This document shows positions 52,276 through 58,534 of a stretch of 64,000 nucleotides of DNA, piece by piece (the stretch's first letter is position 1; each line of letters starts with the position of its first letter). Under the pieces are notes generated by a model. That model made no database searches and was not told the DNA's origin. It was given only the letters and a program-made list of their open reading frames with translations. A program made the position numbers and the translations under genes. The DNA lies in IMG/VR virus record IMGVR_UViG_3300021978_000001, positions 352,001 to 416,000 of that record; one strand, written 5' to 3'. Source of the DNA: a virus. Its lineage: Duplodnaviria > Caudoviricetes.

Positions 52276-52917
52276 ATGAGGGACAACGACAGCTACATCT
52301 ATCGCAAAGGCACCACGCCCAACACGCGTATCGCGATCAGCCAGAAGAACAAGCTCTACTCGGTGGCGCGCGGCCAGACTGCGTTTAGCCAGGTCGGGCT
52401 CGTGTCGAGCTTCGGGTTGAGCGAATCGCGCGCTGTGGACGAGGTGCGTGGGATGGGTTACGGTGATCAGATCGCAGAACTCGTGCCCGGAGTCACCGGC
52501 GCCATGAGCATCTCGGTCAGCCGCACCTTGCTCTATCTCGCAAACATCTACCAGGCCATGGGATACGCTGCGGGCATTGACGGCCTCGTGCGAAGCCTCA
52601 AGCACCACCAGTGGCCCTTTGACCTCAAGCAAGAGCTGGTGTTCTCGCGCATCGCCACCAACTCGCAGAACAACCCCAAGCTCACGGTCCCCTCTTCGGA
52701 TGGGGTCAACGAGGCACTCCTCGTGTTCTTCGAGGCTTGCTGGATGGAGTCCTACTCCGCCAACTACGCTTCGGACGCGGCGATGATCTCGGAAGACGTG
52801 GGCATCAAGGCTACCGACGTGATCGACGGTACCTCGACCTACGGCGAGCTTGCTTCCGATGCAGAGTCCACGGGTAACAACCCGTTCTCCGAGATCGGTT
52901 CGCTTCGCTACGGCTAA
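52276..52917 (+). CDS. Contractile tail tube protein (T4 gp19-like fold)
   Basis: AAGGAG RBS; VRGMGYGD..ELVPG, F.ACWM.SYS and I.EDV.I.ATD pattern typical of myovirus/eCIS tube proteins. Confidence 0.75.
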   Translation: MRDNDSYIYRKGTTPNTRIAISQKNKLYSVARGQTAFSQVGLVSSFGLSESRAVDEVRGMGYGDQIAELVPGVTGAMSISVSRTLLYLANIYQAMGYAAGIDGLVRSLKHHQWPFDLKQELVFSRIATNSQNNPKLTVPSSDGVNEALLVFFEACWMESYSANYASDAAMISEDVGIKATDVIDGTSTYGELASDAESTGNNPFSEIGSLRYG

Positions 52918-52932
52918 TCCGTCGCTTTGACG

Positions 52933-52977
52933 TAAAAAAGCCCGCTCTCCTACAAAGAGAGCGGGCTTTTCTTTTTT
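52933..52977. terminator. Bidirectional rho-independent terminator
   Basis: AAAAGCCCGCTCTC (52936-52949) - CTACAAA - GAGAGCGGGCTTTT (52957-52970), A/T tracts on both sides. Confidence 0.9.
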
Positions 52978-53002
52978 CGGGGATGTTTGCGTGGTAACGA
53001 AT

Positions 53003-53031
53003 CGGACCATCCCCGCGCATGCGGGGAAACC
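53003..53031 (-). CRISPR. Solitary type I-E-like CRISPR repeat
   Basis: CGGACCATCCCCGCGCATGCGGGGAAACC, 27/29 identical to the array repeat; no second repeat nearby. Confidence 0.85.
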
Positions 53032-53121
53032 TTTGATACAACCTGTCACACCTTACAACACCGAACTTCGCGTTCCTGTACCGAGTCAAAGGGTACCTCG
53101 ACTTGACACTACCTGTCAAGT
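53032..53121 (-). promoter_or_regulatory. Truncated leader copy with promoter TTGACA-N18-TACCCT
   Basis: Shares TGTACCGA..C.AA.GGTACCTC...TGTCAAGT with the other two leaders; repeat-proximal part differs. Confidence 0.8.
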
Positions 53122-53334
53122 GTTATTCGAGGCTCTTCTCCTCACTATCATCTCTTTCCCTGAGATCAAGCGCAAGACCGAATCTGCGACGGTGCGGCGA
53201 CGGCCATCATCGAAGCAGACATGCGCGCCGTTGTCATCATCCCCGAGAAGTGTTCCCATGCCGTACTCGGGGTGAAGTACGCGATCTCCGCGAAACCACC
53301 AAGTTCTTTGTACGAGCGTCGTGTCTTTTGTCAT
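53116..53334 (-). CDS. Small SH3-like beta-barrel protein
   Basis: GDRVLHPEYGMGTL...VCFDDG; AAGGA RBS; TGA stop lies inside the TTGACA -35 box. Confidence 0.65.
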   Translation of the reverse strand: MTKDTTLVQRTWWFRGDRVLHPEYGMGTLLGDDDNGAHVCFDDGRRRTVADSVLRLISGKEMIVRRRASNNT

Positions 53335-53345
53335 GGCGCTTCCTT

Positions 53346-53603
53346 TTATGCTGGTCGAAAGTTCCCTACCGCCCACCGTAGCAGGCGTCCCATTGCCTGA
53401 ACACTCTCATCTGAGCTTGCGAGCAACCTCGTAGCGGCTTCAGTAGCGCGCTGCTCTGCATCCCCCGAGGTGCCCTCGAAGGCATCCCTCACAGCGCGCT
53501 TGACGCTTTCTGGGACGTCATTGGCGCGCTCCACAAGGTCGAGACCTTGCGTAGGATTTGCAGCCAACGCGTCGGCGTAAAATACCATCGTTGTTCGTGC
53601 CAT
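53346..53603 (-). CDS. 85-aa helical protein directly downstream of CRISPR array
   Basis: GAGGA RBS lies inside the terminal degenerate repeat. Confidence 0.65.
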   Translation of the reverse strand: MARTTMVFYADALAANPTQGLDLVERANDVPESVKRAVRDAFEGTSGDAEQRATEAATRLLASSDESVQAMGRLLRWAVGNFRPA

Positions 53604-53605
53604 TT

Positions 53606-53817
53606 TATCCTCGCCCCGCACACGCGGGGAACACTGGTCAATGTCTGAGCGCACGATCTCAGTGATCGGACCATCCCCGCGCACGCGGGGAACACGGTGA
53701 GGGCTGGAGCCGTCACGAGGTGGACATCGGACCATCCCCGCACGCGCGGGGAACACATCTGGTCCCAGGTCTCGGGTGTCCAGTTCACCGGACCATCCCC
53801 GCGCACGCGGGGAACAC
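53606..53817 (-). CRISPR. Type I-E-like mini-array: 4 repeats, 3 spacers of 32 nt
   Basis: Repeats at 53606 (degenerate), 53667, 53728, 53789; minus-strand consensus GTGTTCCCCGC-N4-GCGGGGATGGTCCG. Confidence 0.95.
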
Positions 53818-53934
53818 TCTTCAAATGTCCAGTTCCGTAAGTCCTCGGATTCTTTACAGAATCCTCGAACCCTCGCGAACCCGCTTCCCTGTACCGACTC
53901 GAAAGGTACCTCGACTTGACAGGTCGTGTCAAGT
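53818..53934 (-). promoter_or_regulatory. CRISPR leader with promoter TTGACA-N18-TACCTT
   Basis: Near-identical to 56653..56767; inverted repeats GGATTC-N6-GAATCC and ACTTGACA-N5-TGTCAAGT. Confidence 0.85.
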
Positions 53935-53935
53935 G

Positions 53936-54187
53936 TTATTCGACGACTTTTCCATCACTCGCAGGGATGAACACCCCCGGCCCGCGTTCGAGCACGGCGA
54001 AAAACCCCTGCTCGCCATTATGGACCCCCCTGTGCGCGGGATGGTTACGGAAAGCGACGCGTCGGCCTTTCGAGCCATCCACGGTCACGTCGATGCGGCA
54101 TTTGGTGCCAGGTCCGATTTGGGCCATGTACGTGTCGGGGTCGATGATTTTGTGGCCGTAGGTGTTCGTGCCGTCTTCGTTCGTCAT
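53936..54187 (-). CDS. Small hypothetical protein
   Basis: GAGGA RBS; own promoter at 54227..54255. Confidence 0.65.
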   Translation of the reverse strand: MTNEDGTNTYGHKIIDPDTYMAQIGPGTKCRIDVTVDGSKGRRVAFRNHPAHRGVHNGEQGFFAVLERGPGVFIPASDGKVVE

Positions 54188-54226
54188 AGCATTCCTCTCT
54201 TGATGGTGAGTTCACGTTACGCTTTA

Positions 54227-54255
54227 TCTATACCACAAGAGGGACAGGCCGTAAA
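54227..54255 (-). promoter_or_regulatory. Promoter TTTACG-N17-TATAGA
   Basis: Minus strand, TGTGG before -10. Confidence 0.6.
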
Positions 54256-54258
54256 GAA

Positions 54259-54747
54259 TCAATCTCCAGGCAAGAGGGAGTGACTCGGCACATCCTTGAC
54301 ACCGAGCAAGGAAGGGAGGAAGGCGAGCGCTTCTTCGATCGTGGGGAAGATGAGGTCTGCGGCTTCACGGATGAACGCGTGATCCATGCAATGCCCATCC
54401 GTCAGCCCCGCGATCACGACCAGCGTGTGCTCTTGACGCGAGGCCCACGCGATCTCGAAGGTGGTCCCGAGCGAGCGCGAGGTGGCGCCGGTGAGATCCG
54501 CGAGCAGGACATCGGCTTGCGCGACCATCCAGGAGTCCCGCCCGAAGATGGCGCGGTCATTGGAGATGGGGTCTTTGTAGCCCTTGGCCTTGGCTTCCCC
54601 TTGCCCGAGCAAGTGCTCCTTACCGAGCATCGGATGCAGGACATGGAAACCCATCGCCTTGAGGACGGTCCCGCGCTCGTGGAAGTGGTTGTAAGCGTCG
54701 TCGAGGTCGAGGCCCGTGATCGGTCCGGCTGCGTAAATGGTGGTCAT
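54259..54747 (-). CDS. Nucleoside 2-deoxyribosyltransferase-like protein
   Basis: IYAAGPI, F.VLHP, D..MV..ADVLLA, SLGTTFEIAWA. Confidence 0.8.
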   Translation of the reverse strand: MTTIYAAGPITGLDLDDAYNHFHERGTVLKAMGFHVLHPMLGKEHLLGQGEAKAKGYKDPISNDRAIFGRDSWMVAQADVLLADLTGATSRSLGTTFEIAWASRQEHTLVVIAGLTDGHCMDHAFIREAADLIFPTIEEALAFLPSLLGVKDVPSHSLLPGD

Positions 54748-54870
54748 GGTGTGCTACCTGTTGGTGACCCTGGGGAGGGTATCTCTCTTGTACCTCGAAT
54801 GCTCCGGCCTGTCCAGTAAGCTGTGATATTTCCCTTGTAATGTGGGCTCTTTGACCCATGAGGAGGCGCC

Positions 54871-55245
54871 ATGGCTTCGGTTCGAGAAATCCTGCACACG
54901 TATCTTGGGATGAACGTCTCGGGGAAACTCCGTGATGCCTTGATCGACATGTTGAGCTACAAGTCCCTCCCTTCCTGGGAGGATTGGCAAACATGGTACC
55001 TCAATACAGTCGTGGAACACCTGGTTATCTTGTTGCCGGGTGCCACAGGGGACGGTCACGAAATCACGTTCACGCACTCTGAACACGGCTGGGTTCACCT
55101 GGCCTTTTCGTTTCGCACGGGTACCCAGACGCTTTGCGTGTCGATCCGAACCTCGAATCACCATGTGTGTTTGTATGAGGAAGACCCAAACCTGTTGAGT
55201 CTTCTGGTCGTGCGCATTCACGAGACCCTGAGAGATCTATCATGA
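54871..55245 (+). CDS. Hypothetical protein
   Basis: GAGGAGG RBS. Confidence 0.7.
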   Translation: MASVREILHTYLGMNVSGKLRDALIDMLSYKSLPSWEDWQTWYLNTVVEHLVILLPGATGDGHEITFTHSEHGWVHLAFSFRTGTQTLCVSIRTSNHHVCLYEEDPNLLSLLVVRIHETLRDLS

Positions 55246-55853
55246 CACTCGACGAACTCAAGACCACCTTGCTCGCCATGGGTGTTCAACACCCCGAAGT
55301 CAAGCTCCAGTTGCGCGCGGTGATGGATACGCTCTCGACAGGTGTCTTCGATCCCTCCCGTATCGCACGCACGAGGCGTGTGGCCGCGATCCCCAAGAAG
55401 TACGAGCATCTCGACTTCACGCCACCCAAGGACGTGCAGGAGGCCGCAGGGCAGGGTCTCGAACTGCGTCAGGAGCAAGAGGGCGATAAGGCGGGGTTGA
55501 CCAATGAAGAGGCGAGCGATCAGGGCATCGGGTCTGGTGTGCAGCGCGCGGTCAACCTCAAGAACGGGACCAAGCTCGAACCTGACACCATCCGGCAGAT
55601 GGATCGGTTCTTCAAGCGCTTCGCGTCTCTTATCGAGAAGGCGCGTCGTCTCACCAAGAAAGAGGAGATCCTCAAGTCCAATATGCATATCAGTGATCTG
55701 CTCTGGGGAGGCGCGCCCGGTGAGAAGTGGGTCACCAAGATGATCCGCGAGATGGATAAGGCGGATGAGGCAGAGAAGAAAAAGGAGAGCGCCCTCGCAC
55801 GTCGCGTCGCTTCTGTTTACCTTATGGCGCGAGGCGTGGCTCAGGGTCATTGA
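55242..55853 (-). CDS. Phage protein with TPP..V..AA..GL...GVQRA..L...TI..M..FF.R...LLWGG module
   Basis: Module recalled from phage head-associated proteins (unverified); C-terminal RRVASVYL. Confidence 0.6.
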
Positions 55854-56193
55854 GCGGTCGCACGCGCTCCAGCTTCACGTCATCCTGGTGCACGAGTACG
55901 CGCTGTCCTTCCTGGCGTTGGATCTCCCAGCACGCCCATTGCACATCCTTGTAGATGGATTCACACAGGTTCTTGACCTGGTTATAGGCTTCCTTGCCCT
56001 CCTGATACCAGAGACGGTCCATCGAATCCGAATCGAAGAGAAGATAGGTACGCCTCTCTTCGGGCTGAAACCCGTGCGCCTTGTATGCTGCGTCCGGCGT
56101 ATCATGCTCGGTTAGATGAATCGTGAGCTTGGTTTGTGCCAGCCCATCCTCCTGTTGCTTTATCGTACCCATTTTCACACTGAGCCATGTCAT
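55822..56193 (-). CDS. 123-aa protein directly downstream of CRISPR array
   Basis: AAGGA RBS; ATG 14 nt after terminal repeat. Confidence 0.65.
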   Translation of the reverse strand: MTWLSVKMGTIKQQEDGLAQTKLTIHLTEHDTPDAAYKAHGFQPEERRTYLLFDSDSMDRLWYQEGKEAYNQVKNLCESIYKDVQWACWEIQRQEGQRVLVHQDDVKLERVRPLNDPEPRLAP

Positions 56194-56207
56194 GGTTGTT
56201 TCCTTCT

Positions 56208-56652
56208 GGGGCTATCCCCGCGCATGCGGGGAATGTCGTTTCGCGCGTAAACAGGGCATCGAGCCATCCCCACAGATGTGGGGAACATAGGAGGCGAGCG
56301 CCAACATGAGACCAGATCCTCGGACCATCCCCGCACATGCGGGGAAAACATGTCCATATTCTCACCAATGAGTGAGGGCGAGCCATCCCCGCATGCGCGG
56401 GGAACACGGGTATACCCGGTATAGGAGGTATTCCTGGAATAGGGCCATCCCCGCATGCGCGGGGAACACAAAGAGTGGTGCGTGCGCGGTTCCAGACCCA
56501 CCGGACCATCCCCGCACGCGCGGGGAACACGACAGCAGCGCCCACACGGGCATCACACGCCCCGGACCATCCCCGCGCATGCGGGGAACACTCCGTCAAT
56601 GAGGTCAGCATCCGCCCATATTGCGGACCATCCCCGCGCATGCGGGGAACAC
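56208..56652 (-). CRISPR. Type I-E-like array: 8 repeats, 7 spacers (23, 32, 29, 33, 32, 32, 32 nt in ascending coordinates)
   Basis: Repeats at 56208, 56260, 56321, 56379, 56441, 56502, 56563, 56624; degeneracy increases away from the leader. Confidence 0.95.
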
Positions 56653-56767
56653 TCTTCAAATGTTCAGTTCCGTAAGTCCTCGGATTCCTTAAAGAATCCT
56701 CAGACCCTTCCGAACCCGGTTCTCTGTACCGACTCGAAAGGTACCTCAACAGGCCAAACCCTGTCAA
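56653..56767 (-). promoter_or_regulatory. CRISPR leader with promoter TTGACA-N18-TACCTT
   Basis: 34/35 nt identical to the other leader next to the repeat. Confidence 0.85.
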
Positions 56768-56845
56768 GTATGTTTTTTCTCCAGTGGTATTCTTCTTGTG
56801 GCGTGAGCTTTACAGGAATGACTGTCTCTCACGCGAGTTATCATC

Positions 56846-58534
56846 ATGCTACCAAAGATCACCCCCAACCTCGAACAGCGCCTCAAGCACGAGGTGTGCG
56901 AGGTCGCGCGCCAGGGCTTGATGCAAGTCCCTTCCAAATCCCCCAACCGCATGCTTTCCAAGCTCGCAAAGCACCTTGTCGGCAAGGTCGATCTCCCTGC
57001 GGGCGCGTTGAGCCAACAGGAAGCGTACCGCTTCGCCATGGAGCTGCTCGGGCAATGCCGCGTCGCCTTGACCGCACATGATGTCAAGAGCGCGGTCAAG
57101 GAAGTCACCGGGGACGAAAACCCCCTCGTGGATACCTCGACCGTCCAGCGTATCGCTGCGGCACTCCAGAAAGGATGCGAAGGCATGCGTGATGACGCGG
57201 AACGTGGTGCTCAGGGCGCCTTGCGTACCGTGACCAAGCTGCTTGTCCGCGATATGGCGCTCGAAGAATGGTCCGCCATGCAAGTCAGCGATGCCATGGT
57301 CCGTGATATGCTGATCACGCTCCCGATGGCATCCGATCAGATCGCAGGATTCCTTTCGACCTATGTGTCCCGCGCCGCGAGCATTCGGCTCGTGCAAGCG
57401 CGTAAGGTCGCGCGCGCCTTCGCCATGAAGGCTGCTTGCGTGAGCTTGACAGAAAGGACTGCATGCGAGGGCGGGAACTGTGCTTGCTCGGGCGCCTGCG
57501 CTTGCGCATGTGAGGGCTACGCGAATCAGGATGCTTGTGCGTGTGCCTCGGTGACGTCGGGCATCACGATCGCCAATGCAGAAGACTTCCCAAAGAGCAC
57601 CCAGGTCGCGATGAAGCGTCTCAAGAAGATCAATGAAGATCTCGAAATGCTCTCGACCAAGATCGAAAAGCTCGAAGATCAGGGCGTGGATGCCTCCAAG
57701 CTGCATGGGAAGCGCAATGACCTCCAGGGAGAGTACGACCGCACGGTGCGTCTCTTGGAAGGCTTCGGCGTCAAGGTCGCAAAGAACTATCCACCCGAAG
57801 TCGAACGCTACGTCGAGGAGCACAAGGCGCAAGGCATGCCTGTCGGTAAGGCATGGGCCATCGCCTGGTCGCGCTATTGCAAGTACAAGAACCCAGGCAG
57901 CGAGCATTGCAAGGGGAAGGATTACTTCCCGGGGCGACGCTCCGCGCAGCTCCCGCGCCGTCAACCTCGTGAAGCGGGAAAGGACGACGCCAGGATGTTC
58001 AACATGGACCCCACGCGCTACACCCGTGAAGAGCGGCGTGAGATCTTGAGGGAGCGCCCCTGGCTGCATCCCCGCAACCCGAGCGCGCTCGACTATGCCA
58101 TGGATGCCTTGCGCAAGCCTCTGGCGAACTGGCAAGAGGGCGGTTCCGGGAAAGGCGCGGTATTCGCGGCATACAATGCGTTGCATGAGGACCAGAAGAA
58201 AGCGCTGGCCATGGCAAACGCCAAGGTGATGCCTTCGAGTACAGTGGCGTTCCGCTCCAGCATGAACGGTAAGACGTTCCCCTCGTCGATGAAGGGGCAA
58301 TCGTTGCATGTCGAGATCGAACCTGGCATGGCGCGGCTCGGACCCAACCATGTCCGCGCTTACCAGGTCACGCCACGCGAGGTGATGATTCACCCGGACA
58401 TCCCCGGGTCTCCGCTCGGCAAGGGTGTGTGGAAGTGGGAGCGCGAGATGATCCTGATGCCGGACGCGAACCCCAAGCGTCTTTCCGATGCACAGACCGC
58501 AAAACTTCTCGATTCGATCGCCAGGAGAGGCTGA
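56846..58534 (+). CDS. Large mosaic protein: Cys/Ala-rich linker, ChaB-like segment, possible C-terminal ADP-ribosyltransferase-like domain
   Basis: CACSGACACAC; GMPVGKAWAIAWSRY; AFRS...QSL...YQVTPREV...WEREMIL. Confidence 0.55.
   Translation: MLPKITPNLEQRLKHEVCEVARQGLMQVPSKSPNRMLSKLAKHLVGKVDLPAGALSQQEAYRFAMELLGQCRVALTAHDVKSAVKEVTGDENPLVDTSTVQRIAAALQKGCEGMRDDAERGAQGALRTVTKLLVRDMALEEWSAMQVSDAMVRDMLITLPMASDQIAGFLSTYVSRAASIRLVQARKVARAFAMKAACVSLTERTACEGGNCACSGACACACEGYANQDACACASVTSGITIANAEDFPKSTQVAMKRLKKINEDLEMLSTKIEKLEDQGVDASKLHGKRNDLQGEYDRTVRLLEGFGVKVAKNYPPEVERYVEEHKAQGMPVGKAWAIAWSRYCKYKNPGSEHCKGKDYFPGRRSAQLPRRQPREAGKDDARMFNMDPTRYTREERREILRERPWLHPRNPSALDYAMDALRKPLANWQEGGSGKGAVFAAYNALHEDQKKALAMANAKVMPSSTVAFRSSMNGKTFPSSMKGQSLHVEIEPGMARLGPNHVRAYQVTPREVMIHPDIPGSPLGKGVWKWEREMILMPDANPKRLSDAQTAKLLDSIARRG

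Follow-up and report, generated by a model that had tools for sequence, protein, structure and literature searches.

Type I-E CRISPR arrays that run into the translation starts of small genes in a large phage genome

This report concerns a stretch of viral DNA in which type I-E CRISPR arrays run directly into the ribosome-binding sites (RBSs) of small protein genes. The stretch, hereafter the window, is 64,000 nucleotides (nt) long and corresponds to bases 352001-416000 of IMG/VR record IMGVR_UViG_3300021978_000001, a complete virus genome of 437,490 bp with direct terminal repeats. Two arrays on its minus strand, called L and M, are at the center of the analysis. Array L (53606..53817) consists of four repeats and three spacers of 32 nt; its terminal repeat (53606..53634) reads GTGTTCCCCGCGTGTGCGGGG followed by the 3' handle CGAGGATA, which contains the Shine-Dalgarno (SD) sequence GAGGA, and after two further bases (AA) comes the ATG, at 53603, of an 85-amino-acid (aa) open reading frame (ORF), ORF85 (53346..53603, minus strand). 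Array M (56208..56652) has eight repeats and seven spacers, the last of only 23 nt, and its terminal repeat (56208..56236; ACATTCCCCGCATGCGCGGGG with the handle ATAGCCCC) is followed by a 14-nt gap (56194..56207, AGAAGGAAACAACC) that contains the SD of the 123-aa ORF123 (55822..56193, minus strand; ATG at 56193). The hairpin is intact in both terminal repeats. These junctions had been pointed out in an initial annotation; read again directly on the minus strand, they stand as described there, and the pattern is wider than first thought.

A type I-E system carried by the phage

About 79 copies of the repeat are present genome-wide, every one on the minus strand, in the form of 11 arrays of three to nine repeats each and several solitary copies. 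The minus-strand repeat reads GTGTTCCCCGCGTGCGCGGGGATGGTCCG, which is the 29-nt type I-E form with a CCCCGC/GCGGGG hairpin, and a count over both strands of the window gives 25 occurrences of its core pattern, where 0.85 would be expected by chance. Among the internal repeats the core stem is paired in 411 of 413 cells, with two common stem variants (47 G-C and 12 A-T). The 56 spacers, mostly of 32 nt, are unique and have no convincing match to the phage's own genome, the sole self-match of at least 18 nt being a 20-nt alignment with two mismatches (E = 0.47). For three spacers, a search of IMG/VR in which any letter was allowed at every sixth base, or else at the variable bases, yielded no targets. 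One spacer is shared in variant form by arrays F and G (genome 25917-25948 and 28873-28904; GGACGCCATCGCGCGCC(T/C)AAG(T/C)TC(C/T)CTGT(C/T)CG), and the pair has the appearance of guides aimed at variant forms of a single target, for which no match was found in IMG/VR.

The genome also encodes a matching set of cas genes: cas3, cas7, cas6e, cas5 and a fused cas8e-cas11, in which one frame has matches to Cse1 as well as to Cse2. The scores are all above curated cut-offs, and the genes all lie on the minus strand like the repeats, separated by arrays. Aligned to E. coli CasE, the phage Cas6e retains its G-rich loop as well as the catalytic histidine (LHQ, equivalent to E. coli His20); no comparable Cas6e was found in GenBank phage records. 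Repeat and hairpin, unique spacers of about 32 nt and cas genes thus all point to the same subtype. No Cas1 match was found in the complete genome, and cas2 was not searched for; since the spacers differ among strains (see below), their turnover implies acquisition in trans or recombination. Exact matches to the repeat are spread over Actinomycetota, one Burkholderiales metagenome-assembled genome (MAG) and one Desulfovibrionales MAG, so that the host cannot be identified from the repeat.

Repeat-to-gene junctions recur across the genome

At seven of the 11 arrays an SD-led ATG lies 2-18 nt past the last repeat, with no promoter motif between the two. The gap measures 2 nt at array L and 14 nt at array M, 7 nt at the array at 110 kb (ORF84), 12 nt at 23 kb (ORF96), 13 nt at 31 kb (ORF94) and 18 nt at 25.5 kb (ORF140); at the array at 17.8 kb, where it is 11 nt, the gene that follows is cas6e itself. 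The SD is 2 nt past the stem in array L and 3-18 nt from it elsewhere. Another small gene, ORF76 (76 aa), is sandwiched between two arrays, its ATG 28 nt past array F and its TGA abutting the first repeat of array E; in this region (L040:14430-14930, genome 25430-25930) the first repeat of array E starts with TAG rather than GTG. The proteins encoded 3' of the arrays are mutually unrelated, which indicates that the junctions arose independently. Duplication of a single cassette was considered as the source of the pattern and rejected on the same ground.

The terminal repeats themselves are conserved in one part and decayed in another. The six pairs of the core stem are formed in 78 of 78 cells; the 3' handle departs from the consensus at 53% of positions, and the first four bases of the repeat do so at 31%. 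The handle is tied to unique downstream DNA and is free to change, unlike the 5' part and the hairpin. This bears on the earlier suggestion that Cascade, assembling on the last handle, could mask the RBS: the 8-nt handle is what Cascade recognizes, and with such divergence assembly there is unlikely. In bacterial arrays with the same repeat, none of about six array ends has an SD-led gene at the last repeat, though these loci are cut and GC-rich and the control is given little weight.

The canonical type I-E systems of E. coli K-12 and Thermus thermophilus (PMC5965381) share with the phage the 29-nt repeat, the hairpin, 32-nt spacers, array ends made of a leader and a decayed repeat, the Cas6e histidine, and the Cascade and Cas3 genes. 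The phage differs in its 11 small, scattered arrays, in that cas1 was not found and in having its cas genes split by arrays. Moreover, where the last repeat of a canonical array gives way to a non-coding trailer, in the phage it joins the RBS of a protein gene.

Promoter motifs and probable transcription through the arrays

Two classes of promoter-like motif, both called from sequence and position, are found in the genome. The first, P1, consists of TTGACA-N16-GGTACC with a conserved leader of about 85 nt, and has seven genome copies, all on the minus strand. Six of these lie upstream of CRISPR repeats, namely in five array leaders, those of L and M included, and ahead of one solitary repeat. 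The leader of array M (56653..56767, minus strand; TTGACA starting at 56767) is 88% identical to that of array L (53818..53932, minus strand; TTGACA starting at 53932); at the level of motifs, each of the two arrays thus has a leader opposite its decayed-repeat end. The second class, P2, is of the extended -10 type (TTTACG-N13-CTTGTGGTA(T/A)) and has at least 57 genome copies, on both strands, ahead of genes. P2 sits between the last repeat and the gene at exactly three arrays, with gaps of 131, 61 and 83 nt, and at none of the fused ones. Because P1 is found mostly at CRISPR repeats, the arrays and the genes fused to them may be regulated apart from the rest of the genome.

Between the promoter motif and the first repeat, the P1 leaders also share a palindrome, GGATTCT-N5-AGAATCC (for example GGATTCTGTAAAGAATCC; window 53840-53865 and 56675-56700, minus strand), which might serve a dimeric DNA-binding protein as its operator or fold into an RNA hairpin.

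How, then, are the fused genes transcribed? The initial annotation had named independent promoters, along with indifference to Cas6, among the observations that would speak against its reading; a search for P1, P2 and sigma-70 motifs finds none in the gaps of arrays L and M, and a sigma-70 scan gives no site-like match anywhere in 52800-57000. A scan of the minus strand for terminator-like structures likewise agrees with the earlier statement that none lies between array and ORF in either case. A promoter might still be concealed in the terminal repeat or in the spacer before it, the closeness of array and gene reflecting nothing but tight packing; phage genomes are indeed densely packed, and some type II-C arrays have promoters inside their repeats (PMC5965381). 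That said, gaps of 2-18 nt are too short for a promoter, the repeat contains no P1, P2 or sigma-70-like box, and the spacers vary between strains, which leaves no place for a conserved promoter inside the arrays. Independent expression is on this evidence very improbable. With neither room nor motif for promoters of their own, ORF85 and ORF123 are very probably co-transcribed through the arrays that precede them.

Two transcription units can be proposed on this basis. The first would run from P1 (56767) through array M to ORF123. The second would start with P2 (54231..54255, minus strand; TTTACG-N13-CTTGTGGTAT from 54255), the only minus-strand copy of P2 in the region, which lies upstream of ORF83 (53936..54187, minus strand), a frame immediately upstream of the leader of array L that is called in relatives too. 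It would then pass P1 (53932), array L, ORF85 and ORF72 (53116..53334, minus strand), the second gene of the array L unit. Beyond these come a third P1-type leader (53032..53119, minus strand; TTGACA starting at 53119), a solitary repeat (53003..53031, minus strand) and the putative unit end (52936..53002), made up of 32 nt of native gene remnant and a hairpin with a T-run. This hairpin was scored as a plus-strand terminator and appears by inspection to serve both directions. One metatranscriptome of the source sample (18 million letters of it read) has no match on the window and is uninformative about expression.

Conservation among relatives

Relatives of the locus were gathered by exact-protein look-ups in Logan contigs of marine metagenomes, and contigs placed on the window agree with them; a search of IMG/VR for related loci with ORF85, ORF123 and a 203-aa neighbor found none. 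In the strain-level relatives the order of hairpin, SD and ATG is retained while the spacers, the stem bases (with compensatory changes) and the letters of the SD vary. One strain, L018, illustrates this for array L. Its ORF85 is 96% identical at the protein level and all of its array spacers differ, right up to the last repeat. The junction into ORF85, GGGGCGAGGATAAAATG, is identical to that of the window, and only two loop letters differ.

At the ORF123 junction four versions are found, with two stems and three SDs, and hairpin, SD and ATG are kept in all four. The window combines the stem CCCCGC/GCGGGG and the handle ATAGCCCC with the SD AGAAGGAAA; L042 and L043 have the same stem and the SD AGGAGAG; L016 and L017 have CCCCAC/GTGGGG and AGAAGGAAA; and L044 has CCCCAC/GTGGGG, the handle CTAACAAA and the SD AAAGGA. 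The leader predicted to precede ORF123 after cleavage is 22 nt long, or 19 nt in L044. Both genes are under purifying selection: the ratio of non-synonymous to synonymous polymorphism (pN/pS) is 0.17 for ORF85, and 0.16 for ORF123 against an 87%-identical homologue (25 synonymous and 16 non-synonymous changes).

Other parts of the locus vary in content. In L016 (300-640) and L017 (60-400) array M contains an extra ORF of about 70-88 aa that the window does not have; it is preceded by a decayed repeat and GGAGG, and 10 nt past its stop there follows a repeat shortened at its 5' end. Leader modules are shuffled between strains as well (L042:2100-2238 against window 53818-53960). Ahead of array L, L042 has the P1 promoter motif, a 34-nt internal duplication and another type of leader-proximal segment (GGTGTGACAAGATGTCTCAGA), a combination that in the window occurs only at the solitary repeat.

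The arrays as probable leaders of mRNAs

The reading that best fits the layout is that the arrays form the 5' leaders of operons and are processed by the phage's own Cas6e, and it is in our judgment a likely one. Cas6e cuts the RNA 8 nt ahead of the junction between repeat and spacer, leaves a 5'-hydroxyl on one end and a 2',3'-cyclic phosphate on the other, and remains bound to the upstream hairpin (PMC5965381). In the proposed scheme, the leader promoter P1, whose motif is nearly exclusive to CRISPR leaders, would drive a transcript of array M and ORF123, and a second copy would drive array L and then ORF85 and ORF72. The phage Cas6e would cut each repeat hairpin after G21, that of the decayed last repeat included. 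Each cut would yield CRISPR RNAs (crRNAs) for the phage's own Cascade, and the last would release an mRNA with a 5'-hydroxyl end. Its predicted leader is 10 nt for ORF85, 22 nt for ORF123 and 10-26 nt over the fused arrays, starting 1-17 nt ahead of the SD. In this way, guides and a group of small accessory genes that includes cas6e would be expressed jointly and separated post-transcriptionally.

It is probable, then, that Cas6e defines the 5' ends of these mRNAs. The first interpretation of the locus had likewise ascribed these ends to Cas6 cleavage, and to that extent it is upheld by the missing room and motif for separate promoters and by a phage Cas6e with its catalytic histidine; what has to be given up is host Cas6 as the sole enzyme. 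It had further supposed that the ORFs respond to host Cascade. Because the phage encodes a type I-E set of its own, the Cas6 and Cascade that matter are first of all the phage's, and a response specifically to those of the host is unlikely.

Several observations weigh against the arrays as Cas6e-processed leaders. P1 is called a promoter from a TTGACA box and its position only. In arrays L, I and E the base after the predicted cut site is C, where the usual base is A, which makes the cleavage of these three uncertain. Recombination from repeat to repeat would renew the terminal hairpin without any selection for gene expression, and each compensatory change in the stem might reflect an exchange of one common repeat variant for the other; since recombination could keep the hairpin, these changes are not clean proof of function. 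A marine strain (L045:1-230), in which an intact repeat abuts the final 57 nt of ORF85, has lost the 5' two-thirds of that gene and kept ORF72; this indicates that ORF85 is dispensable and that the borders between array and gene are recombination-prone hot spots. Finally, G001 and G002, two phages at a greater distance whose arrays are related, have the next ATG 49-136 nt off, in some cases behind a P2-like motif, and there is one possible fused case. Tight fusion is therefore a feature of this lineage and not of all such phages.

Does Cas6e switch the array-led genes?

A further question is whether cleavage or binding by Cas6e alters expression enough to count as a switch, which we regard as doubtful. 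Two forms of such a switch can be imagined. In one, the hairpin with Cas6e bound to it would block the adjacent SD until the RNA is cut; in the other, terminal repeats with a base other than A after the stem would be bound and left uncut, and Cas6e would be a translational repressor, with feedback on cas6e. Either would make the translation or stability of array-led mRNAs depend on Cas6e. The closeness of SD and stem fits such a dependence, as do the presence of cas6e among the fused genes and the retention of the layout in relatives, and engineered Cas6f/Csy4 hairpins beside an RBS control both translation and mRNA stability (PMC4604432, PMC13478208). Yet none of this separates a switch from plain co-expression, an ordinary promoter motif (P2) occupies the same place at three arrays, and the more distant phages mostly have no fusion. 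The predicted mean unpaired probability from RBS to AUG, moreover, is 0.36-0.75 in the precursor and 0.40-0.71 in the cleaved RNA, with no consistent shift. Gating by RNA structure alone was accordingly rejected as unsupported, the predicted accessibility of the RBS being equal before and after cleavage; a gate through occupancy by Cas6e, whether by binding or by cutting, is possible.

The broadest form of this idea is tentative to the same degree. Cas6e might double as an enzyme of mRNA maturation and control, in which case at least seven array-led genes, including cas6e, would form a regulon that is translatable, stable or repressed only by way of Cas6e at the terminal repeat. The CRISPR arrays might then be cis-regulatory leaders as well as stores of guides, though we would not expect it.

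The products of the array-led genes

ORF123 is a real but orphan gene, and ORF85, likewise an orphan, is predicted to encode a small protein of five helices. The AlphaFold2 model of ORF85 is a confident five-helix bundle (predicted local distance difference test, pLDDT, 81), for which Foldseek found no match in the Protein Data Bank (PDB) at E <= 0.001; that of ORF123 (pLDDT 49) is too poor for a fold search. A full HMMER scan of 1.8 billion representatives with ORF123 returned strain-level relatives only. Pfam contains no match to ORF85, ORF123 or ORF72 and PHROGs no meaningful one (the best, for ORF72, at E = 0.09), and searches of the ESM Atlas and other function searches with ORF85 and ORF123 gave nothing usable. 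ORF72 includes the stretch GDRVLHPEYGMGTLLG...VCFDDG...R, which looks similar to the small, Tudor-like C-terminal domain of UvrD/PcrA-type helicases, with no support from Pfam.

It had been suggested at the outset that the ORFs could be anti-CRISPR (Acr) or accessory genes that sense host Cascade, host Cas6 or Cascade at the terminal repeat tuning the output of an inhibitor. Solitary repeats of phages do occur in clusters with acr genes and may be transcribed together with these (PMC10651486), a solitary repeat led by a P1 motif follows ORF72, and the ORFs are small orphans like many Acr proteins. An inhibitor of type I-E would, on the other hand, disable the phage's own system, of which a complete and matching effector set is present; the handles that Cascade reads are diverged; and ORF85 is largely deleted in one strain. 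No likeness to Acr proteins was found for ORF85, ORF72 or ORF123 in Pfam or PHROGs, or for ORF85 among PDB folds (a dedicated Acr library was not searched), neither ORF85 nor ORF123 matching any known family or solved structure, and the Pfam matches of neighboring ORFs include no aca-like helix-turn-helix (HTH) family. An Acr role is thus most unlikely.

The solitary repeat and neighboring genes

The solitary repeat downstream of ORF72 retains an intact handle (GGTTTCCCCGCATGCGCGGGGATGGTCCG), and the TTGACA of its P1 starts 88 nt upstream, which by motif lies within the 250 bp allowed between promoter and repeat in a solitary repeat unit. Comparison of window 52936-53146 with L018:765-1094 reveals that a gene found complete in L018 (110+ aa) has had its 5' part replaced by the P1-type leader and the solitary repeat; the boundary is at ...ATTCGTTACCACGC (protein IRYHANIP). 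Between the repeat and the terminator stem are exactly 32 nt, the length of one spacer, so that the repeat and its native flank could guide against relatives that retain the gene; in L018 the three bases preceding the site that matches this flank are AAC.

Two other frames lie between the arrays. A 162-aa ORF (54259-54747, minus strand) matches nucleoside 2-deoxyribosyltransferases (PF05014, E = 1e-8) and adjoins ORF83 in all related contigs. A 124-aa ORF on the plus strand (54871-55245) is an accessory gene that varies by strain: L044 has it, and L016, L017, L042 and runs X2/X5 have 41 other letters instead. No Rfam family exceeds threshold in 52800-57000.

Relation to known systems and significance

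The arrangement has points of contact with several phage and synthetic systems. Like ICP1 with its type I-F system, jumbo phages without adaptation modules and viral mini-arrays (PMC11656645, PMC6858448), it belongs to a jumbo phage and combines interference-only CRISPR-Cas with short arrays, and the short phage arrays are presumably used against competitors or the host. In the papers found by full-text search, arrays as mRNA leaders, terminal repeats joined to an RBS and genes sandwiched between arrays are not described. RNA anti-CRISPRs (Racr) and solitary repeat units, including the bicistronic acrIC5-racr (Camara-Wilpert 2023, PMC10651486), are phage repeats that share transcripts with small protein genes and undergo Cas6 processing, as would be the case here. 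There, however, the repeat is found 11 nt downstream of its gene, as a decoy against the host's system, whereas this phage has full arrays upstream, a repeat that joins the RBS, and Cas proteins of its own; a decoy role for the solitary repeat at 53003-53031 is argued against by the phage's own matching system. The cr-like RNAs (Shmakov 2023, PMC10120712) resemble the present case in that repeats or mini-arrays lie in or beside cas operons and a regulatory role is proposed. They act through partial spacer matches to cas promoters, while the action proposed here is in cis and at the 5' end of an RNA. Identity with an autoregulatory cr-like RNA was rejected, the single 20-nt self-match of the spacers (2 mismatches, E = 0.47) being the only one of at least 18 nt. 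The closest parallel is engineered: in Csy4/Cas6 insulators and controllers (PMC4604432, PMC13478208) a Cas6 hairpin is placed just 5' of an RBS, so that cutting creates a defined short leader and binding can repress. Those devices are synthetic, and the phage layout would be their natural counterpart.

If the arrays are indeed processed leaders, the consequences reach beyond this locus. Cas6 enzymes are known as makers of crRNAs and are used in synthetic biology to cut and insulate mRNAs; a virus would then already carry out such mRNA processing in nature: a single promoter would supply guides and proteins at a constant ratio, and Cas6e would cut the very transcript from which it is made. The leader, the array, the terminal hairpin and the RBS would constitute compact natural parts for the multiplexed expression of guides and proteins. 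CRISPR biology would gain a post-transcriptional layer that occurs in nature, and the expression logic of interference-only phage systems would become apparent.

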